The notes: generated by a model not told the origin, from the letters alone. A stretch of 64,000 bases of DNA from Minisyncoccota bacterium (GCA_035714785.1 DASTLQ010000008.1:1713-65712); one strand, 5' to 3'. Positions 6,681-59,467 are shown, numbered from the stretch's first letter. Numbers and translations: made by a program.

Positions 6681-6855
6681 GTGTAAGGGGTCCCCTTGCA
6701 TGTTATCCACAGGTAAGGGTGGTGGGTGTGGATAAAGTGTAAGGGGTCCCCTTACATGTTGGTGGGAAAGGGTCCACCTTCGCTAAGGGTCCGCCTTCGC
6801 CTCTGGCGAAGGTGGACCCTTAAAGGTGGACCCTTAAAGGGGTTCCTTTACACTT
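6681..6855. repeat. REP-like repeat cluster R2 (2 core units, 2 DnaA-box 9-mers, 2.5 copies of module B)
   Basis: GTGTAAGGGGTCCCCTTGCATGTTATCCACAGG...GTGTGGATAAAGTGTAAGGGGTCCCCTTACATG...AAGGGTCCGCCTTCGCCTCTGGCGAAGGTGGACCCTT. It lies between the htpX stop and the gatC start. Confidence 0.85.
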
Positions 6856-7735
6856 TGCCGAGAAGGGCGCTGATGCGGGCTTCTACAGGAGGGTGGGTGG
6901 CGAAAAGGCCTGTAATTTTCTTCCGGATGGTAGAGCCTTTTGGATCAGAGATATATAGGTGCGCAATCGCCTGACTTTGTCTTTTCATTGGCTGAGAATA
7001 TTGTGAAATTTTTCGCAGGGCGTTTGCCAATCCTTCTGGATACCTTGTGAGAAGTGCACCAGACGCATCAGCAAGAAATTCTCGTCTTCGAGAAATAGCT
7101 AGGCGAATCAGGGAAGCAAAAATTGGGGAAAGAATCACCAGCACTATTCCCACGATCATGAAAACATTTGCTCCACGATTTTCATTGCTTCTACCTGCAC
7201 CAAAAATATGACTGCGTATAAAAACATCTGCAATGATAGTCACAAATCCTACCAGCACTACTGCCACTGTTGAAATCAGCATGTCTCTGTTTCCAATGTG
7301 AGAAAGTTCATGACCAATCACGCCTTCCATTTCATTCTTTTCAAGTATCGCCAAAAGGCCAGTAGTGACCGCAACCACGGCATGATTTTTGTCTCTACCA
7401 GTAGCAAAGGCATTAGGAGCAGGATCATTTATCACATAGAGCTTTGGCATGGGAAGACCTGCCGTAATCGAAAGATTTTCGACAGTGGTGTACAGATCAA
7501 AGTATTCCTCCTTTCTGGCTTCTTTTGCCCCAGAGAGAGACAGCACCACTTTATCTGAAAACCAATAAGAAAATATATTCATCAAGATGCTGAATATTAG
7601 GAAGTAATACAGAATATTAGGATTGCCGTAATAGAAGGAAAAAAACCAGCCGAGTGCTATCACCACTGCCAGGAAGACCGTCATTAGTATCCAAGTCTTA
7701 GTAACATTTTTTGATTGTTCTGTGTATAGTGTCAT
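6848..7735 (-). CDS. htpX: Zinc metalloprotease HtpX (M48 family)
   Basis: HELSHIGNRD is the HExxH motif. There are four TM segments in an M48 architecture. Confidence 0.8.
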   Translation of the reverse strand: MTLYTEQSKNVTKTWILMTVFLAVVIALGWFFSFYYGNPNILYYFLIFSILMNIFSYWFSDKVVLSLSGAKEARKEEYFDLYTTVENLSITAGLPMPKLYVINDPAPNAFATGRDKNHAVVAVTTGLLAILEKNEMEGVIGHELSHIGNRDMLISTVAVVLVGFVTIIADVFIRSHIFGAGRSNENRGANVFMIVGIVLVILSPIFASLIRLAISRRREFLADASGALLTRYPEGLANALRKISQYSQPMKRQSQAIAHLYISDPKGSTIRKKITGLFATHPPVEARISALLGKV

Positions 7736-7763
7736 AGATATTTTATAGCATAAGTATTAAAGT

Positions 7764-9470
7764 CTACCAACTACCTCCCCCGCCCCCGCCGAAACCTCCA
7801 CCAGCAAATCCTCCACCGCCAGTCCCAGATCCACCGGAAGCAGCCGACATGCTACTGCCTATGGTCTCGGAAAATCCAGACATATGATTGGAAAAGGCTG
7901 AGACTGCCAAAGCTCCAGTCAGATGCCCCTGATACCATGACGGAGGAGATATATAAATGTTATCAAACTGCTTGGCCCATTTCTTTTCTACGCCCATGGC
8001 TATTGCATATGGCAGGAATTCCATAAACTGCTCCCCTGTCTTTTCTGGCGCATTATGAAAGGCTAATCTGTCCTTTTCAGTAACTGATAAAAAGAGCTTA
8101 AAGCCGAGAAGTCGGTCCTTTGCTTCTGCCCCAGCTTCTGTTCTTTTGCCCATCAAAAAGGCGAAGACAAGAACAATCAGGAATGAAAGGAAAGCAGAAA
8201 TTGCCCCTATCGGACCTGCAATGCTAGTGAAAAGAAGGAGCCCAGCAAAAAGCGTAACCACCGCGATGATTAGATAAATACCAACTACTTTTTTGGGATT
8301 CTTGTGATAGTATCCACGATCAGCCATTTCTTGGTACATGTCTTTCAAAAATTTTGAAGCATGACTCGAAAATGAAGTATTGTTTTTAAATGAAGAAATT
8401 TTCTTTATATCTCCTGCCTTATGTGGCTCATCAAAAATTAATTTCAAAATATCCTGTTCGATTTTTTCAAGCCCCGAAAAATTGTCGTTCACTAGCTCAA
8501 GCTCGTAGTCCACACTGCCAAACATCCAAGACTTTTCCAATCTTTTTATTTTTAAATATCCTTGTTCGGCCAAATAAATTATACCAGCCGTGATATCTCG
8601 GGTTTCTGGTCGGCCGTCGATCAGTGCACCTACTAATGTAGGTTTCATTTCTCTAGGAGGTTCGTATTCGGCAATGATTGGTTGATATCCCTTTGGATCT
8701 TGGCCATGTTTTTTCCAAATCAATAGCATAGCTAAGAAAATAAATATAGGAAAAGCTAGGATCAGATTGTCGAGCAGAATGGCAAAAGATTTTTCCGTTT
8801 CGCTCGGCTCTCGTACGGTACCTTTTGGAAATGACACAGCAGTGGTAAGTCCTTCACCGGGATATAAAACGGTAGTGGAATTTACAAAAATTACATTGTC
8901 TTTTAGGCTTGCTTGGCAAGTTTCATTTGCTCCATCTTTCCCGTGAAAACAACTTACTTTAATTTCTTTATCTTCGTCAGTTTGGGGAAGTTCGATTCTA
9001 GTGTTCACTTGGGCAATTGATGCGGGCCAGCCAGCGCCAGTCACATTCCAGTAAAATTCATCATAATCTTCAAAGTAACTTATTGCTCCTTTTACTAGAT
9101 AGGTGATTTCATAAAGGTGTTCACCACTGATGGTTTTGTCTTTATCCCCTATCTTTATTTCTACATTTGAGCCTTTATTTGTAACTTCATATGGCTCCAG
9201 AGCTCCGTCGCGAGTGACATTTTGTACCTCTAGTTTTATTGTTTTTTGTCCGAGCTTCGTCTTATATTTCACAGGCACATATCTAAAGATACCGTGCTTT
9301 TCTGCATCAAGGCTGTAAGTTATTTTTTCAACAACCAGAATACTCGCATATTCATTTACTTTTATATCTACAAAAAAACTTTTTATTTCCTCAACAGCAA
9401 AAGACGTTCTTCCTCCTATAGCAAGGAAGGTTAGGAAAACAAAAAGCCCTATGAAAATTTTCTTTTTCAC
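7764..9470 (-). CDS. DUF2207 domain membrane protein with C-terminal poly-Gly tail
   Basis: Signal peptide, large extracellular domain, TM helices, and a GGSGTGGGGFAGGGFGGGGGGSW tail typical of DUF2207. The partner LemA gene is adjacent. Confidence 0.7.
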   Translation of the reverse strand: MKKKIFIGLFVFLTFLAIGGRTSFAVEEIKSFFVDIKVNEYASILVVEKITYSLDAEKHGIFRYVPVKYKTKLGQKTIKLEVQNVTRDGALEPYEVTNKGSNVEIKIGDKDKTISGEHLYEITYLVKGAISYFEDYDEFYWNVTGAGWPASIAQVNTRIELPQTDEDKEIKVSCFHGKDGANETCQASLKDNVIFVNSTTVLYPGEGLTTAVSFPKGTVREPSETEKSFAILLDNLILAFPIFIFLAMLLIWKKHGQDPKGYQPIIAEYEPPREMKPTLVGALIDGRPETRDITAGIIYLAEQGYLKIKRLEKSWMFGSVDYELELVNDNFSGLEKIEQDILKLIFDEPHKAGDIKKISSFKNNTSFSSHASKFLKDMYQEMADRGYYHKNPKKVVGIYLIIAVVTLFAGLLLFTSIAGPIGAISAFLSFLIVLVFAFLMGKRTEAGAEAKDRLLGFKLFLSVTEKDRLAFHNAPEKTGEQFMEFLPYAIAMGVEKKWAKQFDNIYISPPSWYQGHLTGALAVSAFSNHMSGFSETIGSSMSAASGGSGTGGGGFAGGGFGGGGGGSW

Positions 9471-9475
9471 TTCTT

Positions 9476-10096
9476 TTAGAATTTTACTTCTACTGGGTTT
9501 TGAGCAGCGTCGCCGTCTGGTAGATCAAAGAATTGCTTCTTTCCAAATCCAAATACTCCAGCAATCACATTCCCTGGGAAGCTTTCTAGGCTAGTGTTTA
9601 GGTCGCGAACATTTCCGTTGTAAAATCTTCGAGAAGCCTGAATTTTGTTTTCAGTATCGGATAGTTCACGCTGAAGTTCCAAGAAGTTTGTATTCGCTTT
9701 TAGGTCAGGATACGCTTCTGCAAGAGCGAAGATGGATTTTAAAGCTCCGGTAAGCATGTTTTCAGCTTCGGCATGTTGCGCGGTTGGACCTTGTGCACCC
9801 ATCGCCACAGATCGAGCCTTTGTGACATTTTCAAAAGCGCTAGCTTCGTGAGTAGCGTAACCTTTTACAGTATTTACTAGATTTGGGATAAGATCATATC
9901 TTCTCTTTAGCTGTACTTCTATGTCTGCCCATGCTTCTTCGGTTCTGTTGCGAAGAGATATGAAATGGTTGTACATAGTAACCACCCATATCACCAAGAG
10001 GACTCCGATAGCAATCAGGTTAAATTCCCACGGAATTAGATCAAATAATCCGCTGGCTAGTAGTAAAATAATGATAATACCAAAGATAATATTCAT
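9476..10096 (-). CDS. lemA: LemA family protein
   Basis: N-terminal TM helix followed by RRYDLIPNLVNTVKGYATHE, which fits the LemA family. Confidence 0.8.
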   Translation of the reverse strand: MNIIFGIIIILLLASGLFDLIPWEFNLIAIGVLLVIWVVTMYNHFISLRNRTEEAWADIEVQLKRRYDLIPNLVNTVKGYATHEASAFENVTKARSVAMGAQGPTAQHAEAENMLTGALKSIFALAEAYPDLKANTNFLELQRELSDTENKIQASRRFYNGNVRDLNTSLESFPGNVIAGVFGFGKKQFFDLPDGDAAQNPVEVKF

Positions 10097-10143: not shown

Positions 10144-10224
10144 GGTGTAAGGGGTCCCCTTACACTTTATCCACACCCACCACCCTTACCTGTGGATAAC
10201 ATGTAAGGGGTCCCCTTGCATGTT
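10144..10224. repeat. REP-like repeat cluster R3 (2 inverted core units, 2 DnaA-box 9-mers)
   Basis: GGTGTAAGGGGTCCCCTTACACTTTATCCACACC...CCTGTGGATAACATGTAAGGGGTCCCCTTGCATG. It lies between the lemA start and the secF stop. Confidence 0.85.
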
Positions 10225-11128
10225 AGGCTTTACGTTTGTGCTCTTCCCACATCACGAGGACTGGGGAGGCGAAGAATATCGATGAATATACGCCGAAGAT
10301 CATACCTGTAGTAAGCATGAATGCAAAGTATTTTGTAGCAGGTGGTCCAAAGAAAAATAGGGACAGCAATACCAATATAGTAGTGAGCGAAGTGAGTATG
10401 GATCGAGCATAAGACTGATCCAAGCTCTTGCCTACAATTTCTTCAAATTTTGAATGATGTTTTATATTGTCTTCGTTTCGAAGATTTTCTCGAATACGAT
10501 CAAAGACCACAATAGTGTCAGCAATAGAAAGACCGACGATGGTAAGCGCAGCTACCACGAATAATGAATCCGCCTCTACTCCAGTAAATTTAGAAAGTAA
10601 TGAAAATACTCCAGCTGCAATGATCACGTCGTGCAAAAGTGCAGCGATAGCGATCAGTCCGTATTTCCATGAAGAAACTGGATTAGAAACTTTTCTGAAA
10701 GCAAATGCGATAAAGCATACCACCGCGAAAGAAGAAAGGATGATGGCGGTAATGGCTTTTCTTGAAAGCTCTCTTCCTGTTGATGGACCGATGGAATTAA
10801 AGCTAGTCTCTACAAGCTCATACTCATCGCCTGCAGACATGACCGAAAGCAATGCTTGGTGTTCATCATCTGTGAGATCGCGAGTCTTTACGATATATCC
10901 TGATTCCCCTGTAGGCTGAAGCACCACGGAACCAAGACCAAGTAGCGCAAGCTCACTGTTTAAATCAACTTGTAGAGGTCTCTCCCCTACATAGGTTACT
11001 TCGGTAAGTGCACCTCCTTTAAAGTCTATCCCCATTTTTATTCCAAATACGGAAATAGAGATGATAGACAAAATCACTAGTATGATAGAGATAGCGACAA
11101 ATATTTTTTTGTGTTTAATTACAAACAT
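10223..11128 (-). CDS. secF: Protein translocase subunit SecF
   Basis: The 301-aa ORF has six TM helices and the conserved FKGG.. N-terminal region. It lies downstream of secD. Confidence 0.85.
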   Translation of the reverse strand: MFVIKHKKIFVAISIILVILSIISISVFGIKMGIDFKGGALTEVTYVGERPLQVDLNSELALLGLGSVVLQPTGESGYIVKTRDLTDDEHQALLSVMSAGDEYELVETSFNSIGPSTGRELSRKAITAIILSSFAVVCFIAFAFRKVSNPVSSWKYGLIAIAALLHDVIIAAGVFSLLSKFTGVEADSLFVVAALTIVGLSIADTIVVFDRIRENLRNEDNIKHHSKFEEIVGKSLDQSYARSILTSLTTILVLLSLFFFGPPATKYFAFMLTTGMIFGVYSSIFFASPVLVMWEEHKRKA

Positions 11129-12544: not shown

Positions 12545-12682
12545 CATGCAAGGGGTCCCCTCCAAGGGTCCACCTTCGCCAGAGGCGAAGGTGGACCCTT
12601 TAACATGCAAGGGGACCCCTTACACTTTATCCACACCCACCCCCCTTACCTGTGGATAACATGCAAGGGGTCCCCTTACACC
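12545..12682. repeat. REP-like repeat cluster R4 (3 core units, module B, 2 DnaA-box 9-mers) in the divergent secD/SIMPL intergenic region
   Basis: CATGCAAGGGGTCCCCTCCAAGGGTCCACCTTCGCCAGAGGCGAAGGTGGACCCTTTAACATGCAAGGGGACCCCTTACACTTTATCCACACC..CCTGTGGATAACATGCAAGGGGTCCCCTTACACC. Confidence 0.85.
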
Positions 12683-16762: not shown

Positions 16763-16790
16763 AGGGTTATTGTATCATAATTTAGAATTT

Positions 16791-16952
16791 CATTACTCTG
16801 TCCAAAAGACTTACGTAGAAGAGGTGTTTAGTTCCCCTACCTCAAAGACTTTTGTATATAGACTTTTCATTACTCTGTCCAAAAGACTTACGTAGGAGAG
16901 GTGTTTAGTTCCCCTACCTCAAAGACTTTTGTATATAGACTTTTCATTACTC
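16791..16952. repeat. 77-bp tandem repeat (2.1 copies) immediately 3' of 5S rRNA
   Basis: The units start at 16791, 16868 and 16945 (partial) and differ by one mismatch. Each unit begins CATTACTCTGTCC, which mimics the boundary at the 3' end of 5S. Confidence 0.8.
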
Positions 16953-17062
<110 letters not shown>

Positions 17063-17422
17063 ACAATAATGAAATTGCGATATATATACTGTCGCTCCCG
17101 CCGTGGCGGACGCGTTATGATTTTCAAATTTCTTAACAGGAATCGAACAATTAGTACTTCTCAGCTCTACACATTACTGTGCTTACACTTAAAGCCTATC
17201 AACCTGATCATCTCTCAGGGTTCTTAACGATTCCTAATCTTGAAGCTGGCTTCCCTCTTAGATGCTTTCAGAGGTTATCCATTCCCGACATAGCTACCGA
17301 GCAATCCACTTGGCAGTAGAGCTCGTACACCAGAGGTCAGTTCACGCCGGTCCTCTCGTACTAAGCGCAAATCTTCTCAAGAATCAACGAGTGCAGTAGA
17401 TAGGAGACCAACCTGTCTCACG

Positions 17423-17748
17423 CATCTACGTCCATAATTACTTATGGGATTGGACTATAGCTTCATCTTTCTTCAGTTTTTACTTGAATAAGACTGCTGA
17501 CGTTTAGTCTCTACGGGTTCCGCCTACTGGCAGATTCCCTCGGTATTGCCCTCACTTTCGTGATCGGGTTTCACCGATACTAGTCAGCTTCACGTCACGC
17601 ATTTCTGTGTGACGCCGCCGTGATGTGCTAAAGCAAATGAATGCCATGCACGTGGTTGTTTTCGATTTATAACAGTCTAATTCGTTCTGAATTATTTTCC
17701 TCTGTAGGGTTCAGATCGTCAAAACCACAAGTTTGTCTTATGATCTCA
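17423..17748 (-). other. Group I intron (ORF-less) in 23S rRNA at the E. coli position ~2593 equivalent
   Basis: Exon junction GGGTTCAGACCGT|intron|CGTGAGACAGG. The intron follows U and ends in G. R-like (GTAGAGACTAAACG) and S-like (GAAGCTATAGTCC) elements are present. Confidence 0.65.
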
Positions 17749-18411
17749 ACGGTCTGAACCCAGCTCGCGTACCTTTTTAATTGGCGAACAGCCAAACGCT
17801 TGGGAGCTTCTCCACCCCCGCGCTAAGGTGAGCCGACATCGAGGTGCCGAACTCCGCCGTCGATATGAACTCTTAGGCGGAACTAGCCTGTTATCCCTAG
17901 AGTAGCTTTTATCCGTTAATCTAAACCCGCATCTAATGCGAAATTTCGGTTCACTTAGTTCTGGTTTCCCACCTGCTCGGGAAGTACCCCTTACAGTCAA
18001 GCCATCTTATGCCTATACACTATCGGCACGGTTTCCATTCGCGCCTAGATGACCTTTAAACCCCTCCTTTACTTTTTAGGAGGGTACAGCCCCAGTAAAA
18101 CTATCCACCAGATACTGTCTCAGTCCGTTTTTTCCGTACTGGTTAGAACATGCCTTCAAAAAGAATGGTATTTCACTGACGAGTAGATAACAGCCGAAAC
18201 CGCTAACATCAGACCTCTCCCATCTATTCTACGCAGTTTAAAAACATGCTCAATATCAAGTTATAGTAAAGCTTCTAGGGTCTTTTCGTCTAACTGCACT
18301 TAACCGGCATCTTCACCGGTATTGTATTTTCACCGAGCTGGTCCCCGAGACAGTTTCCCAGTCATTACACCATTCGTGCGCGTCGGAACTTACCCGACAA
18401 GGTATTTCGCT

Positions 18412-18625
18412 CTTCTATACCCAAGAAGGACTCTATCTTCATCCTCTCCGAAGAGGTGGGATGCTTGACGCTGGTCTCTCGTTAGCCAAGTTTTGACTGT
18501 CTCTACATTACTCTAGAGCAGGTAGCATTCGAATAGTCTAATAATTTTTTAATTTAATTGTTTACTTTTTTCTACAACAGTCCCAGTCATTCCGCGCTCG
18601 TCTGCCATAGGCAAACAAATGCAGA
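18412..18625 (-). other. Group I intron (ORF-less) in 23S rRNA at the E. coli position ~1917 equivalent
   Basis: Exon junction GGTCCTAAGGT|intron|AGCGAAATACCTTGTCGGGTAAG. The intron follows U and ends in G. R-like (TGTAGAGACAGTC) and S-like (GAAGATAGAGTCC) elements are present. Confidence 0.6.
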
Positions 18626-18660
<35 letters not shown>

Positions 18661-19394
18661 CAGGGCTTATATCAGTCTGCATATCTCCATCTTGCGACAA
18701 AGAAACACCGCCGATATTTGACCTTCTGGCATTGGTCAGGTGTCACCCCCTATACATCCTCTTACCGAGTTCGCAGGGAGCTGTGTTTTTGGTAAACAGT
18801 TGCCAGGAATACTTTCGCTGCGGCCGGCATTTCTGCCGGCAAGCCTTATCCCGAAGTTACGGCTGCTTTTTTGCCGAGTTCCTTGGGGACCTCTCACTCG
18901 TTCGTCTTGGTCTACTCGACCTGATCACCTGTGTCGGTTTGCGGTACGGATTCCATATTTTTAAGTTTAGAGATTTTTCTTGGAAGCGTGCTTTGCGAAA
19001 TTGCCCTCGGCCTAAACCGAAAACTTTTCACTTCTCTTGGATTCGCTATTTAAAGCAGCGCGCGGATTTTCCTACGCATCATCCTCAAGAAGCAAACTTA
19101 AATCCATTAATAAGCGACGCATACTACACTCCGTCCTCTCATCACAAAATATGGAAGTGCAGAAATATTAATCTGCTCTTCCATCGGGTGCGGATTTCTC
19201 CATCCCCTTAGGCCCGACTAACCCTTGGCTGATTATCATTACCAAGGAAACCTTGATCTTTCGACGTGATGCGTTCTCAGCATCATTGCGGTTACTTGTG
19301 CCAACATTCTTACTTCCACACGCTCCATAGGCCCTCACGGGTCCTACTTCACAGCAGAGTGGAACACTCTCCTACCACTCGTGAACTTCATAGA

Positions 19395-19705
19395 GGAGCC
19401 GATATTTTTTTATATCGGCTTTCAAACAATTTCGGGGTTCTCCGCAACATCAATCCACACGTTCAGAACACCATATTTAACGTATTGGAGAACCCAAAAG
19501 AACAAATCGTGCCCAGGAAGCGGGATTAAAACCCGACAAAGACCTTCGTCTTTGTATGCTTTGTTTTAACAAAAATTTTTTAAATTAGTTTTTATTTAAA
19601 CATCGCCTGATTGTTACTACTACCGGCTCAATATATCATACACGATATACCAGTACGTAACCCTCCTGGGCTGGCCACCCACCTTGGATGCGAAACTCTT
19701 CCTCT
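19395..19705 (-). other. About 310-nt insertion in 23S rRNA at the helix-45-equivalent region (IVS-like, bounded by a ~16-bp long-range stem)
   Basis: It lies between conserved CCGAA.. and GGTAGGAGAGTGTTC. The flanks GAATTTCATAGAGGA / TCCTCTATGAAGTTC can pair with each other. No group I signatures were seen. Confidence 0.4.
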
Positions 19706-20409
19706 ATGAAATTCACGAATCCTCACATTCGGTACTATGCTTAGCCCCAATTATTTTCGACGCAAAATCTCTGGATGAGTGAGCTGTTACGCTATCTTTA
19801 AAGGATGGCTGCTTCTAAGCCAACCTCCTCATTGTCAGAGAAATTTCACCTTCTTGTCTTGCACTTAGCATAGATTTAGGGACCTTATATTGAGATCCGG
19901 GCTGTTTCCCTTTTCACCAATGGAGCTTAGCCCCCACGGTGTAACTGCCGCATTCTGGCTTCTGGTATTCGGAGTTTGATAGGTTTCGCGAGATTGCTCC
20001 CTGTCGAAACCTTCCAGTGCTCTACCCCCAAAAGAAACATGCGACGCTAGCCCTAAAGCTATTTCGGAGAGAACCAGCTATTACCAGGTTCGATTAGCTT
20101 TTCACTCCTTACCACAAGTCATCCCAACGCGTTGTACGACGAACGGGTTCGGACCTCCATAAGTCTTTCGACCTACTTCATCCTGCTCATGGCAAGCTCA
20201 CCTGGCTTCGGGTCTTATGCATGATATATTTATTTCGCGCTATTAACACTCGGTTTCCCTACGGCTCTGCGGTTCTCCCGCTTAACCTACAACATGCATA
20301 AACTCGTTGGCTCATTCTTCAATAGGCACGCTGTCGCAGATATAAATACCTGCTCCAACTCCTTGTAGACATACGGTTTCAGGTCTATTTCACTGCCCTA
20401 ATCGGGCTT

Positions 20410-20446
<37 letters not shown>

Positions 20447-21202
20447 ATCTGTTAGAGTATTTAGCCTTAGCGGTTAGTTCCGCTGGATTCCCCCCGGCCA
20501 TTCGTGTCCTGGGGTACTCAAGAACGGCAATAAAAGAGATAAATTATTTTCGCTTACGGGCCTATCACCCTCTATGGAACCGCTTTCCAGCAGTTTCAGC
20601 TAATAATTTATTTTTTTACTCTTCTAGTAATCTACATTGCCGCCTTACAACCCCCAAATATTGCTACTTGGGTTTGGGCTCTTTCCTTTTCGCTCGCCGC
20701 TACTTAGGAAATAATTTTTATTCTCTTTTCCACCTGGTACTGAGATGTTTCACTTCCCAGGGTGCGCTCTCTGAATCAAGTTCAGAGTTATTGAGGTTTG
20801 CTCAATAGGGTTTCCCCATTCGGAGATCTCCGGATATATTGGTTGCTAGGCACCTCCCCGGAGCTTATCGCAGCTATGCCACGTCCTTCATCGCCTCTAA
20901 CAGTCTAGGCATCCACCGTACGCCCTTAATTTCCTGTTAAGAAATCTGAAAATCATAATTTTCATTTAGCTTTCTTTTCCGACCGCTCGGCATAAGAAAG
21001 CTGTTCTACCTACCGACATAAAGACCCCTTGGAAAGATTCATATCTTTACAAAAGAAATTGTCGTAGTAGCTTTAAGTTTTCAATCTTCAATCCGTTTCG
21101 GCAAACAAAAAACCGCCTTGTGGGCGGCTAAAAGAAAAAAACTTCTCTTTAGCGCCGCCTTTTGAGTTTCGTGTTTTTCGTTATTGTCATACTGATTGGG
21201 CT

Positions 21203-21231
21203 AGTATATATCAAAGGCTTTTCAATGTCAA
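21203..21231 (-). promoter_or_regulatory. Candidate sigma70-type promoter for the 23S-5S operon
   Basis: On the minus strand: TTGACA, a 17-nt spacer, then TATACT. This lies about 265 nt upstream of the 23S 5' end. Confidence 0.4.
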
Positions 21232-21296
21232 GAAAAAGGCCTAAAACCCCCAGAAACGCCAAAAGCCCAGCATAAACCGGGCTTTTGTAAGGATTT

Positions 21297-21340
21297 GCAA
21301 GGGGTCTAGGTGTAAGGGGTCCCCTTGCATGTTATCCACA
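21297..21340. repeat. REP-like repeat R5 (1 core unit plus DnaA-box 9-mer)
   Basis: GGTGTAAGGGGTCCCCTTGCATGTTATCCACA. Confidence 0.85.
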
Positions 21341-21347
21341 TATTTGA

Positions 21348-22043
21348 TTATTGTCTGTTGGAAACTTCTTCGCCAAGTCGAGAAATCAAACGAGAAGCGT
21401 GATCCTTTCCACCGAGTCCAAATGCTAGTGCTCCAGACAGGGCAAGCATCGCTACGATACCGGTGAACAAAATGCTCATGTATGCTTCAGCCACTCCTAG
21501 TTGTCCAAGAGCGATGATTAGAGCAAAGATCCAAACTGCATACTTTGCGATAGCAGCCAAAGTACGAGCAGATGAAACACTCACTGCTTTAGCGGAAGCT
21601 GATACTGCACCTGATGCAAAGTCAGCAACATATGCTGCGATGATCAAGATGAACGCTGCCACGATTACTCTAGGCAAGAAACCTAGAACATCGTATCTCA
21701 AGAAGGAAGCAAGGTAATCCAATCCAACCAAATTTAATGATGGAAGAAGGAAGATGATTATTACAAACCACTTCACAATCTGTCCCAAAAAGTAACCGGT
21801 ATTCAACTTCATTCCTGCTCTATGAAGCAGATTCTCTAGTCCTAAAGATCTAAAAGCGTTGTCTACTTTAAGTGCACCGAAAACATGCTCGAAAGCTTTT
21901 GCAATCAAGTTACCTAGAACCCAACCGATGATAAACAAGATGATGGCAAGCAACAGTTTAGGAGTAAACTGTATGAAGCCCCACCATAGTTCTTGCAATG
22001 ATGCATTAAACACATCACCCCAAGTAAGCCAAATATTATTCAT
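21348..22043 (-). CDS. Polytopic membrane protein with conserved-TM-helix repeats (mechanosensitive-channel-like N-terminal region)
   Basis: The 231-aa ORF has about five TM helices. A repeated segment (..IIIFLLPSLNLVGLD../..IFALIIALGQLGVAEAY..) resembles the TM_helix (PF05552-like) motif. The assignment is tentative. Confidence 0.45.
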   Translation of the reverse strand: MNNIWLTWGDVFNASLQELWWGFIQFTPKLLLAIILFIIGWVLGNLIAKAFEHVFGALKVDNAFRSLGLENLLHRAGMKLNTGYFLGQIVKWFVIIIFLLPSLNLVGLDYLASFLRYDVLGFLPRVIVAAFILIIAAYVADFASGAVSASAKAVSVSSARTLAAIAKYAVWIFALIIALGQLGVAEAYMSILFTGIVAMLALSGALAFGLGGKDHASRLISRLGEEVSNRQ

Positions 22044-22116
22044 AATCTAATGTTAAAAATACTGATAATTCTTAAGTTCGACCTTAAGATTCTTATGACC
22101 ATATTATATCAATATT

Positions 22117-22698
22117 TCAAGGTCTTTTGAGTGCTTGTGTGGATAACTCTTTGGCGGACCACACGACCTCGTGAGGGAAATCGAGGATATCTCTGACCAA
22201 TTTGTCGTACATATCCAATCTATATACAAATTCTTTAGTATCAAAAACAACGTAAGAAAGCTCAACTCCGATTTCTGCTTCAAGTCTTTTCACACCTTCT
22301 TCCACTTTCTTGGTCTTGATTTTATCTCCTACCACTAAAATATCAGCCCGAGTGTCTTTGTCTTTTATAAATACACCAGACACAATCAAGAGCTTTATCT
22401 TTCCTGATTTTCGGAAACTTTCGATTATGTTTTGCTTGTCGTAGCTTCCGGCATTTATTAATAAATCCTCAAATTCAGTTGTATAAGGGAAAGCTAGATT
22501 GAAGGTCCAACCTGCAGACATCTTTTTTACAAAATTTGCCGACGAAAGAAGAGCGAGCTCTTTGCGGACCACCGAAAGATTCACCCTACTTCTACTTACT
22601 ATATCTTTATTGGTAAAAGCTTTGCTTTTGTTTTGCAAAAAAAGCCTCATCATTTTTACCCTAGACGGGCTTCCTAGTATTTTTCCTAATATTTCCAT
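22117..22698 (-). CDS. Hypothetical winged-HTH-like protein
   Basis: The N-terminal segment ILGSPSRVKMMRLFLQNKSKAFTNKDIVSRSRVNLSVVRKELALL has HTH character. The start is trimmed to MEILGKILG, because the 5' extension reads through repeat R6. Confidence 0.45.
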   Translation of the reverse strand: MEILGKILGSPSRVKMMRLFLQNKSKAFTNKDIVSRSRVNLSVVRKELALLSSANFVKKMSAGWTFNLAFPYTTEFEDLLINAGSYDKQNIIESFRKSGKIKLLIVSGVFIKDKDTRADILVVGDKIKTKKVEEGVKRLEAEIGVELSYVVFDTKEFVYRLDMYDKLVRDILDFPHEVVWSAKELSTQALKRP

Positions 22699-22717
22699 AT
22701 GCTCTATATTATACCTC

Positions 22718-22752
22718 GCATGTAAGGGGTCCCCTTGCATGTTATCCACAGG
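22718..22752. repeat. REP-like repeat R6 (1 core unit plus DnaA-box 9-mer)
   Basis: CGCATGTAAGGGGTCCCCTTGCATGTTATCCACAGG. Confidence 0.85.
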
Positions 22753-22767
22753 TTGCAAAAATTAAAG

Positions 22768-24480
22768 TTAATGCTGGTAAAATCCTCTAGCTTCTGAATC
22801 CGGTATAAGAATAAGTTTTACTTCCCTATTTTTACATAATTCGATTATTTTTTCATCATTTACTGACCCGCTCGTAGAAAAAATCGTCTTTATTCCTCGG
22901 TCTATTAATACTTCTGGAGCATCAGGAAATGGGAAGAAACTGTCGCTGTATGCCGTGGCTCCTGTGAGGTCGGCTGTTTGTGTGCCCTCCTGTGCGCTTT
23001 GGGCGCTTTGGGCGCTCTCTGCGCTTTGGGCCTCTCCCATACTTGCTCGAAATCCGGCTGACTCATCGGCGCGAGAGATTGCAAGCTTTGCCGCTCCCAC
23101 TCTGTCCTGCTGGCCGACTCCGTTTCCTAGTAGCTGTCCATCTTTTACTAGTGTAATGGTGTTGCTGTTTGAAGTACTACCTACTGCCCAAGCGAGCACT
23201 GCATCTTGGGGCAAGGCGTTTAGGGGTAAGGGGTCCCCTTGCATGTTTGCGTGTAAGGGGTCCCCTTGCATGTTATCCACAGGTACGAAGGTGTAGTTTG
23301 GTTGCTCTAAAAATCCACCTCGGACATATCGGAATCTTTTGGCTATATCGAGTGAGTCCTGCCCCGCCTTTTCAATCTTTGGATTTACTACCAAACGGCA
23401 CTTCCCCTTTTTGCGAGAAAGTATTTCGATTGCTTCTTCGCTAAAAGAAGGCGCGGCCACCATGTCGAGCAATCTCCTCCCCTCCGCTACATATTTATGA
23501 ATCAGGTCTTCTGCAATCTTTTCATCAACTGGAAAATTTACCATCACCATCCCGCCAAAGATTGCGCGTAAATCGCCAGTGAGCATTTTTTCCACTGCCA
23601 CTCCGCCATCAGCATCTGACACTCCTGCCCCACATGGATTTCCATGCTTTACTCCAATAGCCACAAACGGAACTTGCGAAAAGTTTTTTTCAAACCCCGC
23701 TCCGATATGGGTGACTGTCTGGATCATCCGATCAAGATCACATATATTGTTGTAGCTCATGGCACTGCCTCCGACCTGCTTCCAATTGTGCACCGCTAGT
23801 GCATCCTTGCTTCCTAGATTTTCAAAGAGAGCCGCCGGCTTCTGATATGCATTTTCCCCGTAAGCACATTCGTAGTTTCTTTTTCCAAAAATTGCTTTGT
23901 ATTCACCTCCACTATGATACTCTCCAGAAATGGAACAGTACCTTCCCACTACCGCTTCTGCCTTGGCAGAAAGTGCGTTTAGAAAATTTTCTTTCTCTGG
24001 TTCACCAGCTTGTAGCCATTCGATTACTCTTGGTCGATCGATAGGGTCGCAAATAGTGATCCTTCCTCCTTTGGCCGAAGCCCTGATCATGGTCGGTCCG
24101 CCAATGTCTGTTTTCTCTATCACTGATTCACGAGTGGCGTCCGGATTTGCAACCTCATCTTCTAAGGGATAGAAATCTACACACACCATATCGATGCGAG
24201 AGATTCCATATTTTTCCAAGTCCGCAATATGTTCCGGAGTATCGAGCGCTAAAAGTCCCCCGTGAATTTTTGGATGCAAGGTCGCTACTCGGTGTCCCAA
24301 TATTGCCGGCATGCCCGTGATCTCCTCAACGTCCGTCACCGCTATTCCATTTTCCGAAAGATATTTTGCCGTCCCTCCCGAAGAGATTATTTTCCAGCCC
24401 ATAGATACTAGGGCCTTGGCAAAATCTTCTAGACCATTTTTATTATAAACAGAAATGAGGGCCGTTTTTTGGTGTTGCAT
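22768..24480 (-). CDS. purH: Bifunctional AICAR transformylase/IMP cyclohydrolase, carrying an in-frame REP-derived insertion and a SAQ nonapeptide-repeat insertion
   Basis: The N-terminal MGS-like domain is MQHQKTALISVYNKNGLEDFAKAL. The C-terminus matches PurH (..SDSFFPFPDA..). Repeat R7 is translated as VDNMQGDPLHANMQGDPLPLNALP. The 9-bp tandem GCGCTTTGG x4 encodes SAESAQSAQSAQ. Confidence 0.9.
   Translation of the reverse strand: MQHQKTALISVYNKNGLEDFAKALVSMGWKIISSGGTAKYLSENGIAVTDVEEITGMPAILGHRVATLHPKIHGGLLALDTPEHIADLEKYGISRIDMVCVDFYPLEDEVANPDATRESVIEKTDIGGPTMIRASAKGGRITICDPIDRPRVIEWLQAGEPEKENFLNALSAKAEAVVGRYCSISGEYHSGGEYKAIFGKRNYECAYGENAYQKPAALFENLGSKDALAVHNWKQVGGSAMSYNNICDLDRMIQTVTHIGAGFEKNFSQVPFVAIGVKHGNPCGAGVSDADGGVAVEKMLTGDLRAIFGGMVMVNFPVDEKIAEDLIHKYVAEGRRLLDMVAAPSFSEEAIEILSRKKGKCRLVVNPKIEKAGQDSLDIAKRFRYVRGGFLEQPNYTFVPVDNMQGDPLHANMQGDPLPLNALPQDAVLAWAVGSTSNSNTITLVKDGQLLGNGVGQQDRVGAAKLAISRADESAGFRASMGEAQSAESAQSAQSAQEGTQTADLTGATAYSDSFFPFPDAPEVLIDRGIKTIFSTSGSVNDEKIIELCKNREVKLILIPDSEARGFYQH
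22990..23035. repeat. 9-bp tandem repeat (about 4.5 copies, GCGCTTTGG / GCGCTCTCT) inside purH
   Basis: The sequence is read directly. It is in frame and encodes an (SAQ)n-like stretch. Confidence 0.75.
23224..23283. repeat. REP-like repeat cluster R7 (2 core units plus DnaA-box 9-mer) inside the purH CDS
   Basis: GGTAAGGGGTCCCCTTGCATGTTTGCGTGTAAGGGGTCCCCTTGCATGTTATCCACAGG. This is the same two-unit variant, in the same strand and frame, as in gatA. Confidence 0.85.
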
Positions 24481-24496
24481 GTACGTATAATAACAC

Positions 24497-24609
24497 AAAA
24501 ACCCCTGAATACTTCTTGAGAAAAGCCTTCGGAGGCGCGACGGCGCCGGAGAGAGAAAATTTTCAGCAGAAAATTTTCGTGCTTTTCAAAAGAAGTATTC
24601 AGGGGTTTT
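24497..24609 (-). terminator. Long structured inverted repeat / intrinsic terminator between rplL and purH
   Basis: An outer stem of about 26 bp (AAAACCCCTGAATACTTCTTGAGAAAAG / CTTTTCAAAAGAAGTATTCAGGGGTTTT) encloses inner hairpins. On the minus strand it is followed by TTTTTGTGTT. Confidence 0.5.
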
Positions 24610-24617
24610 AAGTTTTG

Positions 24618-24983
24618 TTATTTCAATTCCACTTTCGCACCAGCTTCTTCGAGCTTCTTCTTTAGGTCTTCAGCTTCATCTTTCTTCATACCTTCTTTCA
24701 AGGTTACTGGAGCGCCGTCTACTAAATCTTTAGCTTCTTTCAATCCGAGTGCTAGGACTTCTTTTACTACCTTCATCACTCCGATCTTTTGTTCACCAGC
24801 CGAAGCAAGAACTACTGTAAAGGAATCCTTTTCCTCTGCGGCTGCAGCTCCTGCGGCAGGACCAGCGGCAGCAACTGCTGCTGCGGACACTCCAAACTTT
24901 TCTTCAATTTCTTTGACGAGGTCATTCAACTCCATAACAGAAGCTGATTCCAAGTCTTTCATAAATGCGTCGAATTTTGACAT
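24618..24983 (-). CDS. rplL: 50S ribosomal protein L7/L12
   Basis: The 121-aa ORF has an Ala-rich hinge and the C-terminal segment [27 protein letters not shown]. Confidence 0.9.
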
Positions 24984-25008
24984 ATTATTTTAAAATATAA
25001 ATTTATAA

Positions 25009-25491: not shown

Positions 25492-25826
25492 ATGTATTTT
25501 TTCGCTTTTGCGAATTTTAAACAAAAAAACGGCTCAATGCTAATAAGAGCCGCAAGTGCCGATTTCATGCTCCGCCTTTGGGCAGAAAACGAAAACGGGT
25601 ATCGACCACTCTACAGGACTTATGGATGCCTGTCGTCTTTGCGGTACCTCTACTATATCATAATATCCTTATTCTGCAAACCATTCTACTACCTCTTTTG
25701 CTCGAGGGTCTGCTCCTTCCATCCCACTTATCCAATACAATCCTAATAGGGCTAATAGAATCATAGCCGTAAATAGAAGGACGGTTTTGAAGAAATGCTT
25801 GGTGAGCATGAGTATATAATACCATA

Positions 25827-29293: not shown

Positions 29294-29393
29294 TATTAGA
29301 GAAAATTACTTATAAAATAGAAAAAGACCAGACCTCGGCGGATCTAGTCACTCATCTTTCGATTATATTCTTTGTGTCCCCAACCTGTCAAAA

Positions 29394-30161: not shown

Positions 30162-30224
30162 ATTATATGGAAGATCGCGTCTCTCGTATCAAAAATTATA
30201 GCAAAACTAGTAACCAAAAAGAAA

Positions 30225-30313: not shown

Positions 30314-30317
30314 TTGA

Positions 30318-43401: not shown

Positions 43402-44595
43402 TTAACCCAATATTTTTGTAACCACTCCTGCACCCACAGTCTTACCTCCTTCACGGATAGCAAATTTCTGTTGTTCTTCAAGAGCGATAGGTGTAACCAA
43501 TTTTACAGTGATGCTCACAGTATCTCCTGGCATAACCATTTCGGTTCCTTCTGCCAAAGTAACATCTCCAGTCACGTCAGTAGTTCGGATGTAGAACTGA
43601 GGCTTGTAACCTTTAAAGAATGGAGTGTGACGTCCACCTTCTTCCTTTTTCAAAACGTAAATTTCAGCTGTGAAATTGTCGTGTGGAGTAACAGTTCCTG
43701 GCTTTACCAAAACCTGTCCACGAGTGATGTCTTCTTTCTTAAGACCTCGCAATAGGACTCCGGCGTTGTCTCCAGCCATACCTTCCTGAAGATTTTTGTT
43801 GAACATTTCGATACCAGTAACAGTAGTCTTTTGATTTGCTTTAATACCAACGATTTCGATTTCTTCACCAACCTTTACGATTCCTCTTTCAATCTTTCCT
43901 GTAACAACAGTTCCTCGTCCTTCGATTGAAAAGATGTCTTCTACTGGCATTAGGAATGGCTTGGTAACATCTCTTTCTGGAACTGGGATGTAAGTATCAA
44001 GTGCGTCTGTAAGTTCCAATACTTTCTTTGACCATTCATCATTTACATCTTGAGATTCAAGAGCCTTAAGAGCGGAACCTCGGATAACTGGAGCATTTGC
44101 GCCGTCAAAGCCTTGTTTTGTAAGGAGTTCACGGATTTCTTCTTCAACCATGTCTAGCATATCCTTGTCATCCACCATGTCGCATTTGTTCATGAAAACG
44201 ATGATTCGAGGCACTCCAACTTGGCGAGCCAAGAGAACGTGTTCACGAGTCTGTGGCATAGCACCGTCAGTTGCAGCAACCACCAAAATAGCACCGTCCA
44301 TTTGAGCGGCACCGGTGATCATGTTTTTAATATAGTCGGCGTGTCCCGGAGCATCGATGTGCGCGTAGTGACGTGCATCGGTAGCGTACTCGTTGTGGGA
44401 GATGTTAATGGTGATTCCACGGGCCTTTTCTTCTGGAGCGTTGTCGATCTGACTAACGTCCTTTAGGCGCACAGTCTTTCCTGCCATCTGGAGCACATGA
44501 AGGATAGCAGCAGTAAGGGTAGTCTTTCCATGGTCAACGTGACCGATGGTACCTACGTTTACGTGCGGCTTGTCTCTTTTAAATTCTTCTGCCAT
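43402..44595 (-). CDS. tuf: Elongation factor Tu
   Basis: [22 protein letters not shown]. Confidence 0.95.
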
Positions 44596-44800: not shown

Positions 44801-44861
44801 GGTGTAAGGGGTCCCCTTGCATGTTATCCACAGGTTTAGGTGTAAGGGGTCCCCTTACACC
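44801..44861. repeat. REP-like repeat cluster R11 (2 core units plus DnaA-box 9-mer) upstream of tuf
   Basis: GGTGTAAGGGGTCCCCTTGCATGTTATCCACAGGTTTAGGTGTAAGGGGTCCCCTTACACC. Confidence 0.85.
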
Positions 44862-45770: not shown

Positions 45771-45820
45771 CCTGTGGATAACATGTAAGGGGTCCCCTTG
45801 CATGTTCCCCTTGCATGTTA
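45771..45820. repeat. REP-like repeat R12 (1.5 core units plus DnaA-box 9-mer) abutting the fusA stop
   Basis: CCTGTGGATAACATGTAAGGGGTCCCCTTGCATGTTCCCCTTGCATGTTA. Confidence 0.8.
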
Positions 45821-49852: not shown

Positions 49853-49909
49853 CAACATGTAAGGGGTCCCCTTGCATGTTATCCACAGGGTAAGGGGACC
49901 CCTTACACC
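49853..49909. repeat. REP-like repeat cluster R13 (2 core units plus DnaA-box 9-mer)
   Basis: CAACATGTAAGGGGTCCCCTTGCATGTTATCCACAGGGTAAGGGGACCCCTTACACC. Confidence 0.85.
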
Positions 49910-51267: not shown

Positions 51268-51342
51268 CCTGTGGATAAAGTGTAAGGGGTCCCCTTGCAT
51301 GTTATCCACATGTGGATAAAGTGTAAGGGGTCCCCTTACACC
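51268..51342. repeat. REP-like repeat cluster R14 (2 core units, 3 DnaA-box 9-mers)
   Basis: CCTGTGGATAAAGTGTAAGGGGTCCCCTTGCATGTTATCCACATGTGGATAAAGTGTAAGGGGTCCCCTTACACC. Confidence 0.85.
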
Positions 51343-54451: not shown

Positions 54452-54486
54452 TTCTTTATTCCTTATCTTTATTTGAAATTACATTT

Positions 54487-54603
54487 ATTTAAAATATCAA
54501 TATTTATTCATTACAGCATGTTTCATAACGATTAGTCAATATGGCATAAAAAACGCCCGTAGGTTATACGGGCGGAAGATTTGTGAAATCTTCAAAACTT
54601 TTC
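54487..54603. repeat. ~115-bp conserved intergenic cassette, copy A (terminator hairpin plus promoter)
   Basis: It is about 90% identical to 55280-55392. It contains the hairpin CGCCCGTAGGTTATACGGGCG. On the minus strand it reads TTGACT, 18-nt spacer, TGTAAT. Confidence 0.75.
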
Positions 54604-54655
54604 GCGGACAAAGGGCAAAGTGTCAAAAAGACCACAGTGCCCCAAGTCCAGAGTG

Positions 54656-55288: not shown

Positions 55289-55392
55289 TATTTATTCATT
55301 ACAGCATGTTACATAGCAATTAGTCAATATGGCATAAAAAACGCCCGTAGGTTATACGGGCGGAGGATTTGTGAAATCTTCAAAACTTTTAA
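55280..55392. repeat. ~115-bp conserved intergenic cassette, copy B
   Basis: Same sequence as copy A. A partial third copy (promoter part) is at 56040-56075. Confidence 0.75.
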
Positions 55393-55397
55393 GCGGC

Positions 55398-55991: not shown

Positions 55992-56115
55992 GGCGTTATC
56001 TCCTTATTATGTTATAAAACAACTTGTTACCTTTTTAATTACCGCATATTACATAGCAATTAGTCAATAGTACTATTTTAACACCATTAAAACTCTTATC
56101 TGCTAAAATATATCC

Positions 56116-58051: not shown

Positions 58052-58105
58052 AGGGTAAGGGGACCCCTTACCCTGTGGATAACATGCAAGGGGACCCCTT
58101 ACACC
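58052..58105. repeat. REP-like repeat cluster R15 (2 core units plus DnaA-box 9-mer) abutting the rplK stop
   Basis: CAGGGTAAGGGGACCCCTTACCCTGTGGATAACATGCAAGGGGACCCCTTACACC. Confidence 0.85.
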
Positions 58106-58530: not shown

Positions 58531-58581
58531 ATTTTTATATTTCTTTACTTAAAGCGCCCATGTCTCAACTGACAGATTACC

Positions 58582-59127
58582 CTATGTTCTCTTAACTTGC
58601 AAGAAGTCTAATTCTACTGGGGTTTCTCGGCCGAACATTGATACTAATACTTTTACCTTGCCTCTTTCTTGATCTACTGCATCCACTTTTCCTTCTAAAT
58701 CTCTAAATGGACCGTCAGTGATGCGTACCATTTCTCCGATTGCAAGATCAATATTGTGCTTTGCTGGTTCTCCATCCATTTTCTTAAACAGAAAATCAAC
58801 TTCGTCTTTTCGAAGGGGCACAGGATTTATTCCAGCTCCTACGAACCCAGTGACGCGTGGAGTGTTGCGCACTACGTACCATGAATCATCCGTCACTATC
58901 ATATCCACCAATACGTATCCGGGATATATTTTTTCTTCGACTTCTACCCTCTTTCCTCCTTTTACTTTTATTTTCTTTTCTACCGGTACTACTACATTAA
59001 AAATTTTCTCGTGCATCATCAGAGAGTCTATGCGCTGCTTCAAATTGCGCAGAACGACATTTTCGTATCCTGCGTAAGTATGAATGGCGTACCAATTTCT
59101 TGTACCTTGGTTTTCTTGCTTTGACAT
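58582..59127 (-). CDS. nusG: Transcription termination/antitermination factor NusG
   Basis: An NGN domain (NWYAIHTYAGYENVV) and a KOW domain (GEMVRITDGPFRDLEGKV) are present. The start is trimmed to MSKQENQ. Confidence 0.85.
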   Translation of the reverse strand: MSKQENQGTRNWYAIHTYAGYENVVLRNLKQRIDSLMMHEKIFNVVVPVEKKIKVKGGKRVEVEEKIYPGYVLVDMIVTDDSWYVVRNTPRVTGFVGAGINPVPLRKDEVDFLFKKMDGEPAKHNIDLAIGEMVRITDGPFRDLEGKVDAVDQERGKVKVLVSMFGRETPVELDFLQVKRT

Positions 59128-59140
59128 ATTATTTTTATTG

Positions 59141-59319
59141 TTAGAACAATAGCTCCAATGCTCGGAGGAAGATGAAGTCAAAGAGTCCGAGGAAATAAGC
59201 CACGAGGATGGAAAGAACAATAACGATAACAGTGTAATGCACTGTTTGCATCTTGCCTGGCCATACTACATGCCTCAATTCTCCTTTTATTTCTTTGAAA
59301 TATTCGGTTACTTTTGCCA
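59141..59319 (-). CDS. secE: Protein translocase subunit SecE (59 aa, below the ORF-track cutoff)
   Basis: The manual translation is MAKVTEYFKEIKGELRHVVWPGKMQTVHYTVIVIVLSILVAYFLGLFDFIFLRALELLF. It has a single TM helix and lies upstream of nusG. Confidence 0.55.
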
Positions 59320-59387
59320 TATTCTTTTAAAAAAGCCCCTCGTGGGGCTCTTTTAATATACTCCTTTCACAAAAAATGTCAATTTTA

Positions 59388-59467
59388 GGTGTAAGGGGTC
59401 CCCTTACACTTTATCCACACCCTGTGGATAACATGCAAGGGGACCCCTTGCCCCTTGCGCCTTGCGC
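59388..59467. repeat. REP-like repeat cluster R16 (2 core units, 2 DnaA-box 9-mers, CCCCTTGCGCCTTGCGC tail)
   Basis: GGTGTAAGGGGTCCCCTTACACTTTATCCACACCCTGTGGATAACATGCAAGGGGACCCCTTGCCCCTTGCGCC. Confidence 0.85.

Follow-up and report, generated by a model that had tools for sequence, protein, structure and literature searches.

Does a palindromic repeat that is dispersed through a bacterial chromosome carry the binding site of the replication initiator along with it? The question is raised by a stretch of 64,000 nt of chromosomal DNA, read on one strand and called the window throughout, from an uncultivated member of the Paceibacteria (Parcubacteria; candidate phyla radiation, CPR). In the window, copies of a short palindrome are joined to the 9-mer TTATCCACA, a perfect DnaA box, and the same units flank a gene for a Y1/HUH protein resembling the REP-associated tyrosine transposases (RAYTs; REP, repetitive extragenic palindrome). 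To our knowledge, CPR bacteria have tiny genomes with very few recognisable regulators, and their promoters and replication control are essentially unknown.

A palindromic repeat that carries a DnaA-box 9-mer

The window contains 24 perfect copies of TTATCCACA/TGTGGATAA on both strands, the first at 6703 and the last at 59431 (0.375 per kb), all of them 9/9 matches to the DnaA-box consensus (TTATCCACA / TT[AT]TNCACA). In 100 dinucleotide-preserving shuffles the expectation was 0.64 (standard deviation 0.80, maximum 3), and none of them reached 24; the preliminary description of this DNA, which had claimed more than 20 perfect boxes far above chance, is borne out in this respect. Single-mismatch variants of the 9-mer occur at chance level, and it is therefore the exact consensus that is enriched. 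All boxes but one (23 of 24) lie directly 3′ of the 3′ arm of a 22-nt palindrome, [GTGT/CATGC]AAGGGGWCCCCTT[GCATG/ACACT]; the sole box without a palindrome is 22138(−). The palindrome core (AAGGGGWCCCCTT) occurs 28 times, with a flush box at 21 cores, two of which have a box on both sides, and with no adjacent box at the remaining seven (5587, 5614, 23228, 29435, 44844, 49892, and 58057), so that the former statement that nearly every unit is flanked by a box holds for most units and was slightly overstated. The repeat unit is REP-like and consists of the 22-nt palindrome plus TTATCCACA(GG). Boxes are spread across about 16 regions in 53 kb as scattered singles, doublets, and triplets. Six inverted box pairs are present: the closely spaced pairs reported at 30236–30295, 51270–51320, and 59405–59430 were all recovered, with 30270(+)/30282(−) separated by 3 nt, 51302(+)/51311(−) abutting (0 nt), and 59411(+)/59423(−) separated by 3 nt, and three more pairs enclose a 15-nt spacer (6703/6727, 10167/10191, and 12627/12651). 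As single-stranded DNA (ssDNA), the inverted doublets are predicted to fold into single long hairpins with dG of −20 to −26 kcal/mol and z of −5 to −8, a form reminiscent of REPINs (REP doublets forming hairpins). The individual copies, together with the RAYT-like gene and one adjoining promoter, are as follows; entries without a sign have no strand assigned.

5583–5631: box-free palindrome pair of the main family, outside the range covered by the preliminary description
6681–6758: REPIN-like doublet of type A, with boxes 6703(+) and 6727(−) on the two sides of the 15-nt spacer GGTAAGGGTGGTGGG and a palindrome at the outer end of each box; one long hairpin, dG −25.7 kcal/mol, z −8.3
10145–10222: REPIN-like doublet of type A in the opposite orientation; boxes 10167(+) and 10191(−)
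12605–12682: REPIN-like doublet of type A between the divergent secD and SIMPL genes; boxes 12627(+) and 12651(−)
21310–21340 (+): single unit, palindrome and box 21332, upstream of the 23S rRNA promoter
22138–22146 (−): palindrome-free box, 29 nt upstream of the TGaTATAAT −10 element of a mechanosensitive (MS)-channel gene (21348–22043)
22720–22750 (+): single unit, palindrome and box 22742, just upstream of a 213-aa gene
23224–23281 (+): two palindromes and box 23273, in-frame inside purH (22768–24498, minus strand), read as VDNMQGDPLHANMQGDPLP
29362–29391 (−): consensus promoter TTGACA-18-TATAAT of the 199-aa and 956-aa genes (12/12 matches), right after box 29395; box-to-(−10) offset 27 nt
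29395–29452: REP cluster downstream of the RAYT-like gene: box 29395–29403(−), 3 nt upstream of the 12/12 sigma-70 promoter, then palindromes 29405–29426 and 29431–29452
29469–30161 (−): single-copy Y1/HUH RAYT-like gene, 230 aa; HuH motif NHFH, Tyr motif YIHLNP
30238–30313: REP cluster upstream of the RAYT-like gene: box 30238–30246(−), 37 nt before the TGcTATAAT −10 element of that gene, palindrome 30248–30269, box 30270–30278(+), ccc, box 30282–30290(−), palindrome 30292–30313; long hairpin, dG −20 kcal/mol, z −5
32985–33045: partly decayed doublet of type A with box 33007(+), a degenerate second box, and the spacer of the other type A doublets; cmk(+) and a 422-aa open reading frame (ORF) at 33059–34327(−) converge on it
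44802–44861: palindrome, box 44824(+), palindrome; upstream of a 397-aa ORF (43402–44595)
45773–45808 (−): box 45773(−) and palindrome, then a partial repeat
49857–49909: palindrome, box 49879(+), palindrome
51270–51342: two palindromes with the abutting boxes 51302(+) and 51311(−) between them, and box 51270(−) ahead of the first palindrome; hairpin dG −24.2 kcal/mol, z −7.4
58053–58105: palindrome, box 58074(−), palindrome
59389–59454: doublet with 3-nt spacer; boxes 59411(+) and 59423(−)

The internal order palindrome-box-GGTAAGGGTGGTGGG-box-palindrome is common to four doublets (6681–6758, 10145–10222, 12605–12682, and the decayed copy 32985–33045), and since all four enclose the same 15-nt spacer, the boxes belong to the copied element. 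Box 33007 lies at convergent gene ends, where no promoter is expected, and therefore arrived with its repeat. The copy at 23224–23281 leaves the purH reading frame open, and in alignments with solved PurH structures it corresponds to a region of low conservation. The box is thus co-mobilized with the palindrome, as had been proposed under the name of DnaA-box mobilization, presumably with the RAYT as the copying enzyme. Intrinsic terminators were considered as an identity for the palindromes and rejected: none of the REP palindromes at 21000–31000 was called terminator-like, and after the stems come GCATG/ACAC and the box, where a terminator would have a T-run.

A second palindromic repeat family, AAGGGTCCACCTTCGC...GCGAAGGTGGACCCTT, is found at 5635–5669, 6768–6835, and 12564–12600 (eight arms vs 0.43 expected) and always adjoins copies of the main repeat.

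The RAYT-like gene and its homologues

The RAYT-like gene occurs once in the window, and its product is 100% identical to an NCBI protein from a metagenome-assembled genome named 'Candidatus Paceibacterota'. The protein has a weak but significant match to Pfam Y1_Tnp (E 2.4e-7) and scores 43.3 bits against NCBIfam NF047646 REP_Tyr_transpos (REP-associated tyrosine transposase, equivalog), under the curated cut-off of 80 bits; by this score it is a distant relative and not an equivalog. Its confident AlphaFold2 model (predicted local distance difference test score 85.8) was compared with PDB structures by Foldseek; Escherichia coli TnpAREP bound to a REP hairpin ranked first (4ER8, E 7e-6), and the IS608 and ISDra2 transposases came next. 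No DnaA_C-like or helix-turn-helix (HTH) domain was detected by Pfam at E ≤ 10, either with the whole protein or with its C-terminal 83 aa; comparison with E. coli DnaA domain IV by hhalign, using an approximate query sequence, returned a probability of 1%, and no PDB sequence match was obtained.

Both flanks of the gene (29395–29452 and 30238–30313) are built from the same palindrome-plus-box units that are scattered in the window, and 13-mers from these flanks recur at 15 distant window sites. The palindrome is the cognate REP-like repeat of the RAYT-like gene, and the overall anatomy is that of a REP/REPIN-RAYT system without a GT[AG]G head at the stem foot. Defined REPs carry this tetranucleotide 0–2 nt 5′ of the stem foot (PMC6006769). 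In the window, the stems begin with GTGT or CATGC, no GT[AG]G is found at that position, and the sole GTGG lies within TGTGGATAA, 5 nt from the stem.

A palindrome scan of 185,579 species representatives yielded no sister genome with the window's repeat family; it returned 34 unrelated loci with single CAAGGGGWCCCCTTG palindromes and without boxes. Conservation of the 9-mer, a check suggested in the preliminary description, was therefore tested on more distant relatives, namely two NCBI/ENA loci and 80 metagenome loci encoding RAYT homologues (688 kb in total; labelled L035, L037, and L039–L118). Homologues of the protein number 6,809, the nearest being 65% identical, and all named ones but two come from Patescibacteria/Parcubacteria. 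The gene order large protein, Y1 gene, ~200-aa gene, L10, L12, another ~200-aa gene, MS-channel gene is maintained across relatives, and the Y1 gene is therefore vertically inherited, a domesticated gene rather than an active insertion sequence. Nearly all of the ~80 homologues have a perfect palindrome, specific to the genome, on either side, and the Y1 family is thus REP-associated throughout. The palindromes have in common an AAGG-N3-7-CCTT core, which the window's CAAGG-GGWCC-CCTTG also contains.

Boxes near the RAYT gene are found at about a quarter of the homologues; roughly three quarters have palindromes but no box. In ~20 genomes, a perfect TTATCCACA lies 30–170 nt from an end of the Y1 gene beside palindromes unrelated in sequence to that of the window, as in the flanks TGTGGATAA-CTGCAGGAGGTCSGACCTCCTGCAG-TTATCCACA of L037 and GGCCTTAGTAAAAAG-TTATCCACAGG of L035 and at L039, L049, L057, L063, L080, L098, L100, L102, and L107. 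The 9-mer is thus kept next to the repeat in related genomes even where the palindrome is entirely different, which implies a function beyond the palindrome. The hairpin-box-gene order of the downstream side of the window's RAYT gene (box 29395 and its promoter) recurs in L035. Among relatives, the spacing between box and stem ranges from 0 to 10 nt; the 0-nt junction is found in the three genomes with an amplified unit, those of the window, L037, and L063. At six homologues the box starts 60–64 nt before the start codon, in five of them in the orientation of the gene. The use of the box is patchy across a crude neighbour-joining tree of the RAYTs and not confined to one clade. Box-free RAYT palindromes recur at distant sites in L045, L086, L105, and L048. 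Because the box is missing at ~3/4 of the RAYT loci and palindromes disperse without it, an obligatory role of the 9-mer as recognition head of the RAYT is disfavoured.

In L037, the Y1 gene has on either side a copy of one 64-nt segment made up of a hairpin arm, the box, and the promoter that follows (9880–9943 and 10701–10764; 98% identity), as if the gene had inserted into, or copied, a box-promoter cassette.

The 9-mer at promoters and its reader

Across 665 kb of the related loci, the perfect 9-mer occurs 76 times vs 7.2 expected, an enrichment of about 10-fold, and its single-mismatch neighbours are barely enriched (TTTTCCACA, 15 vs 7.2; position-5 variants at chance). The extended consensus is aAG-TTATCCACA-G. 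Intergenic DNA makes up only 18% of these loci and holds 60 of the 76 boxes, 47 of which are co-oriented with the next gene. In 34 of 75 cases the box is followed at 28–32 nt, with a peak at 30, by the start of a −10-like hexamer; controls on the other side and on the other strand are flat, and T-richness 7–9 nt after the box marks the −35 region. With its end some 30 nt ahead of the −10 element, the box occupies roughly positions −51 to −43 of promoters and points toward the gene. Orthologous promoters keep perfect boxes without palindromes: those of the MS-channel gene in the window (22138) and in L035, L037, L040, and L057, and those of the large-protein gene in seven loci, where the boxes form the arrangement TTATCCACA-N8-TTGCAG-N17-TATAAT. 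In box-bearing loci the 9-mer yields the top GC-containing intergenic 8-mer; many Paceibacteria loci of 15–20 kb lack any box, and no substitute motif was found among the intergenic 8-mers of box-free loci. With high confidence, the 9-mer is a cis-element of the lineage that is independent of the RAYT.

Two further features of these regions were recorded. The last codons of a conserved gene of ~200 aa (22117–22758, minus strand), situated between L12/purH and the MS-channel gene, contain box 22138, and its product has only faint matches of the winged-helix type (ArsR/Rrf2/RepL, E 0.003–0.1). A second, imperfect box lies on the same strand 2–3 bp from a perfect one in L035 (5877–5896), L040 (6012–6031), L057 (5769–5788), L107 (about 5965–5985 and 9901–9921), and L059 (1238–1258), examples being TTTTCCACG-AG-TTATCCACA, TTATCCACA-GG-TTATCCCCA, and TTATCCACA-GGG-TTATACACA. 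Same-strand near-boxes at an 11-nt pitch (2-bp gap) weakly recall DnaA arrays; several of them are orthologous, and independent cases are few.

Domain IV of DnaA binds an asymmetric 9-bp site as a monomer, and TTATCCACA is identical to the highest-affinity DnaA box. Because the 9-mer shares this asymmetry, this length, and the full sequence, its reader is probably DnaA or a protein of identical specificity. By simple arithmetic, an arbitrary 9-mer matches the DnaA consensus at 9/9 positions on either strand with a chance of about 1 in 130,000, and on the sequence evidence a coincidental identity would be very unlikely. In a tblastn search of the window and the related loci (about 1 Mb) with an approximate E. 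coli query, no DnaA domain IV homologue was matched. The conserved 199-aa product encoded downstream of the RAYT was examined as a candidate binding factor and discarded; it has a hydrophobic N-terminus, which we read as a signal or transmembrane segment, and no DNA-binding match. Neither dnaA nor dnaN is present among the scanned window ORFs, and the cumulative GC skew is negative and monotonic without a turn, so that no origin is located there. A box cluster of the oriC or datA type was likewise rejected, the boxes being dispersed over the regions described above and not gathered in one compact cluster. A datA-like locus in the window, as contemplated earlier, is therefore not supported; a diffuse titration effect is possible if DnaA binds.

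We consider it on balance probable that a promoter-upstream site, most parsimoniously that of DnaA, was captured and amplified by a REP/RAYT system. According to this proposal, DnaA or a protein of the same specificity would bind just upstream of −35 at a subset of promoters in many Paceibacteria, a subset that would include the promoters flanking the RAYT gene, where the RAYT hairpin adjoins the box. Hairpin and box would then have been fused at 0-nt spacing into one amplifiable unit in the window genome, as also in L037 and L063, and this unit would have been copied as singles and REPIN-like inverted doublets to at least 15 further sites in 64 kb, adding at least 20 extra perfect boxes. Provided that DnaA binds, the ancestral boxes would couple a subset of promoters, including that of the RAYT itself, to DnaA, and the amplified repeats would constitute many extra high-affinity sites and hence a diffuse titration sink; extrapolated from the window, should its density be representative, a few hundred boxes would be present in a genome of ~1 Mb. 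We infer that the boxes may exert a regulatory or titration effect. A bolder version of the proposal, possible and to our mind doubtful, would extend the role of DnaA (or a factor of the same specificity) to that of a general factor close to promoters in a wide range of Paceibacteria: a large part of their promoters, that of the Y1 transposase among them, would have a perfect box at about −51 to −43. REP-like hairpins would have captured and spread the box, and the repeat system, selfish or domesticated, would set the DnaA-titration capacity of the genome and rewire DnaA-dependent transcription in a regulator-poor minimal genome.

Several observations weigh against the involvement of DnaA or against a function of the amplified copies. 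The variants that DnaA tolerates (TTWTNCACA) are hardly enriched in relatives, a preference sharper than in known DnaA regulons, and a mismatch spectrum that does not follow this tolerance lends DnaA no support. Many loci are free of boxes and presumably all of their genomes have DnaA, which looks more like a lineage-specific factor or usage. In the window, just three boxes have a promoter-like spacing (22138, 29 nt; 29395, 27 nt; 30238, 37 nt); the others lie at different distances or face away from the gene. Since most REP-borne boxes are off the canonical promoter distance, they may individually be neutral passengers of repeat amplification. The 0-nt junction between box and stem in the three amplified genomes leaves room for a role of the box in mobilization.

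If the 9-mer served the RAYT as a recognition or cleavage head, like the GT[AG]G of classical REPs, its likeness to the DnaA box would be irrelevant. TGTGGATAA does contain GTGG, the box abuts the stem where the unit has been amplified, some 20 genomes have it beside the RAYT gene, their palindromes being otherwise unrelated, and 'double-foot' units with boxes at either foot of the stem (30248 and 51280 in the window, and in L037) resemble the double-foot REPs of PMC6006769. However, flanking palindromes without a box at about three quarters of the homologous loci, the dispersal of such palindromes in four of them, a variable spacing of 0–10 nt that places GTGG at least 5 nt from the stem foot instead of 0–2 nt as in defined REPs, a conserved family feature that is the AAGG...CCTT stem and not the box, and hairpin-free boxes kept at a fixed distance from −10 make this explanation unlikely. 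The suggestion in the preliminary description that the match might be a coincidental RAYT recognition sequence has lost ground accordingly. Repeat amplification might alternatively have produced the enrichment as an artefact, a chance TTATCCACA beside a founder palindrome having been copied along without function. The association of 23 of the 24 window boxes with repeat units fits this, as does the position of most of them away from promoter distance, yet it is highly improbable given that the same perfect 9-mer is enriched ~10-fold in relatives with different or no palindromes, conserved at orthologous promoters, and phased with −10 elements.

In a third account, the 9-mer is bound not by DnaA but by a lineage-specific transcription factor or a factor associated with RNA polymerase, which might have a DnaA-domain-IV-like fold, and REPs merely carry its site. 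Strict phasing with the −10 hexamer, co-orientation with genes, a need for all nine positions without enrichment of DnaA-tolerated variants, and the patchy distribution of the motif in Paceibacteria, whose box-free loci showed no substitute for it, would all be accommodated by such a factor. It is nevertheless rather unlikely in our estimation, in view of the rarity of a full DnaA-consensus identity for an arbitrary 9-mer and of the candidates screened, among which the RAYT showed no DnaA_C-like or HTH domain, the 199-aa protein no DNA-binding match, and the ~1 Mb of window and loci no homologue of DnaA domain IV.

Should the capture and amplification of a DnaA site hold true, a perfectly conserved DnaA-box 9-mer phased with −10 elements in many Paceibacteria would offer a directly testable handle on global regulation in an uncultivated radiation. 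It would also be the first case found of a palindromic repeat family that spreads initiator-binding sites, linking repeat proliferation to the control of initiation via titration.

Neighbouring genes and related systems

Almost all genes in the window are on the minus strand; thyA, folA, purH, secD, a SecD/SecF-like ORF, a gene of the FtsW/RodA family, and murB were identified, and by size and order we read a run of short minus-strand ORFs at about 33–48 kb as genes for ribosomal proteins and translation factors. The 23S rRNA gene (17132–20939, minus strand) measures about 3.8 kb vs 2.9 kb for the model, with a group I intron match at 17431–17640 and ORFs within the gene (e.g., 18732–19211, plus strand, 159 aa). 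The 5S rRNA gene lies next to it at 16955–17060, no 16S rRNA gene is adjacent, and directly downstream of the 5S rRNA gene lie 2.2 tandem copies of a 77-nt unit with 98% identity (16788–16957). Another group I intron match (3881–4088, plus strand; 66 bits, full model) falls where two minus-strand ORFs are 293 nt apart, and no rRNA or tRNA gene that could host it is evident. Three minus-strand genes in a row (235, 210, and 197 aa) share the near-identical upstream sequence ttgactaatYgctatgWaacatgctgtaatgaataaata (54452–54655, 55289–55397, and 55992–56115), and the same terminator-like hairpin is present in the upstream sequences of the 235-aa and 210-aa genes; the array looks like a tandem duplication of gene plus promoter.

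Full-text searching of the literature found no report of DnaA boxes in REPs, of RAYTs in CPR, or of TTATCCACA at CPR promoters. In the nearest paper, some Y1 proteins are described as having a DnaA_C-like domain (Quentin et al. 2018, PMC6006769). Among known systems, the likeness is closest in anatomy to the REP/REPIN-RAYT systems of Proteobacteria (TnpAREP of E. coli and Pseudomonas; 4ER8): a single-copy, vertically inherited Y1/HUH gene is flanked by dispersed intergenic palindromes that are genome-specific and occur as singles and as inverted doublets folding into long hairpins, and the best fold match is TnpAREP itself. In contrast to Proteobacterial RAYTs, the window system has no GT[AG]G head, its protein reaches 43 vs 80 bits for the RayT equivalog and bears an extra C-terminal region of ~80 aa, and the host is a CPR bacterium. 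A perfect DnaA-box 9-mer within the unit sets it apart from the known REP families, for none of which one was found in the literature.

By its motifs, and not by phylogeny, the protein was assigned to TnpAY1 subclass 2.1 (PMC6006769; Bertels group 1), with which it shares NH[YF]H (here NHFH), Y[IV]HLNP (here YIHLNP), and size (230 aa vs ~238 aa with a C-terminal extension). Subclass 2.1 has been described as lacking associated REPs (Quentin et al. 2018, PMC6006769), whereas palindromes flank nearly all of the ~80 homologues considered here; if the assignment is correct, a Y1-transposase clade described as REP-less would be palindrome-flanked in CPR genomes. Some proteins of the subclass (subgroup 2.1.2) have an HTH/Bac_DnaA_C-like C-terminus but no DnaA-box-like flanks (PMC6006769). 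The window presents the reverse, with DnaA boxes nearby but no DnaA_C-like domain in the protein.

Perfect high-affinity consensus boxes outside oriC, at the density given above, recall datA, DARS (DnaA-reactivating sequences), the DnaA-box clusters of Bacillus subtilis, and the dispersed boxes of initiator titration. Unlike datA, no single cluster with datA architecture is formed, and the boxes are dispersed by a repeat, often as inverted pairs that would be stems of ssDNA hairpins. The unbroken in-frame copy in the conserved enzyme gene purH resembles Rickettsia palindromic elements and in-gene REP insertions, the difference being that only one in-gene case is seen here, in a poorly conserved stretch of PurH. 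The Correia elements of Neisseria, which carry promoters and IHF sites, and the bacterial interspersed mosaic elements of E. coli, with IHF and gyrase sites, are likewise small, non-autonomous palindromic repeats that spread a protein-binding or promoter-related motif through intergenic DNA; in the window, however, the motif is the box of the replication initiator, and the repeat is tied to a Y1 rather than a DDE transposase.

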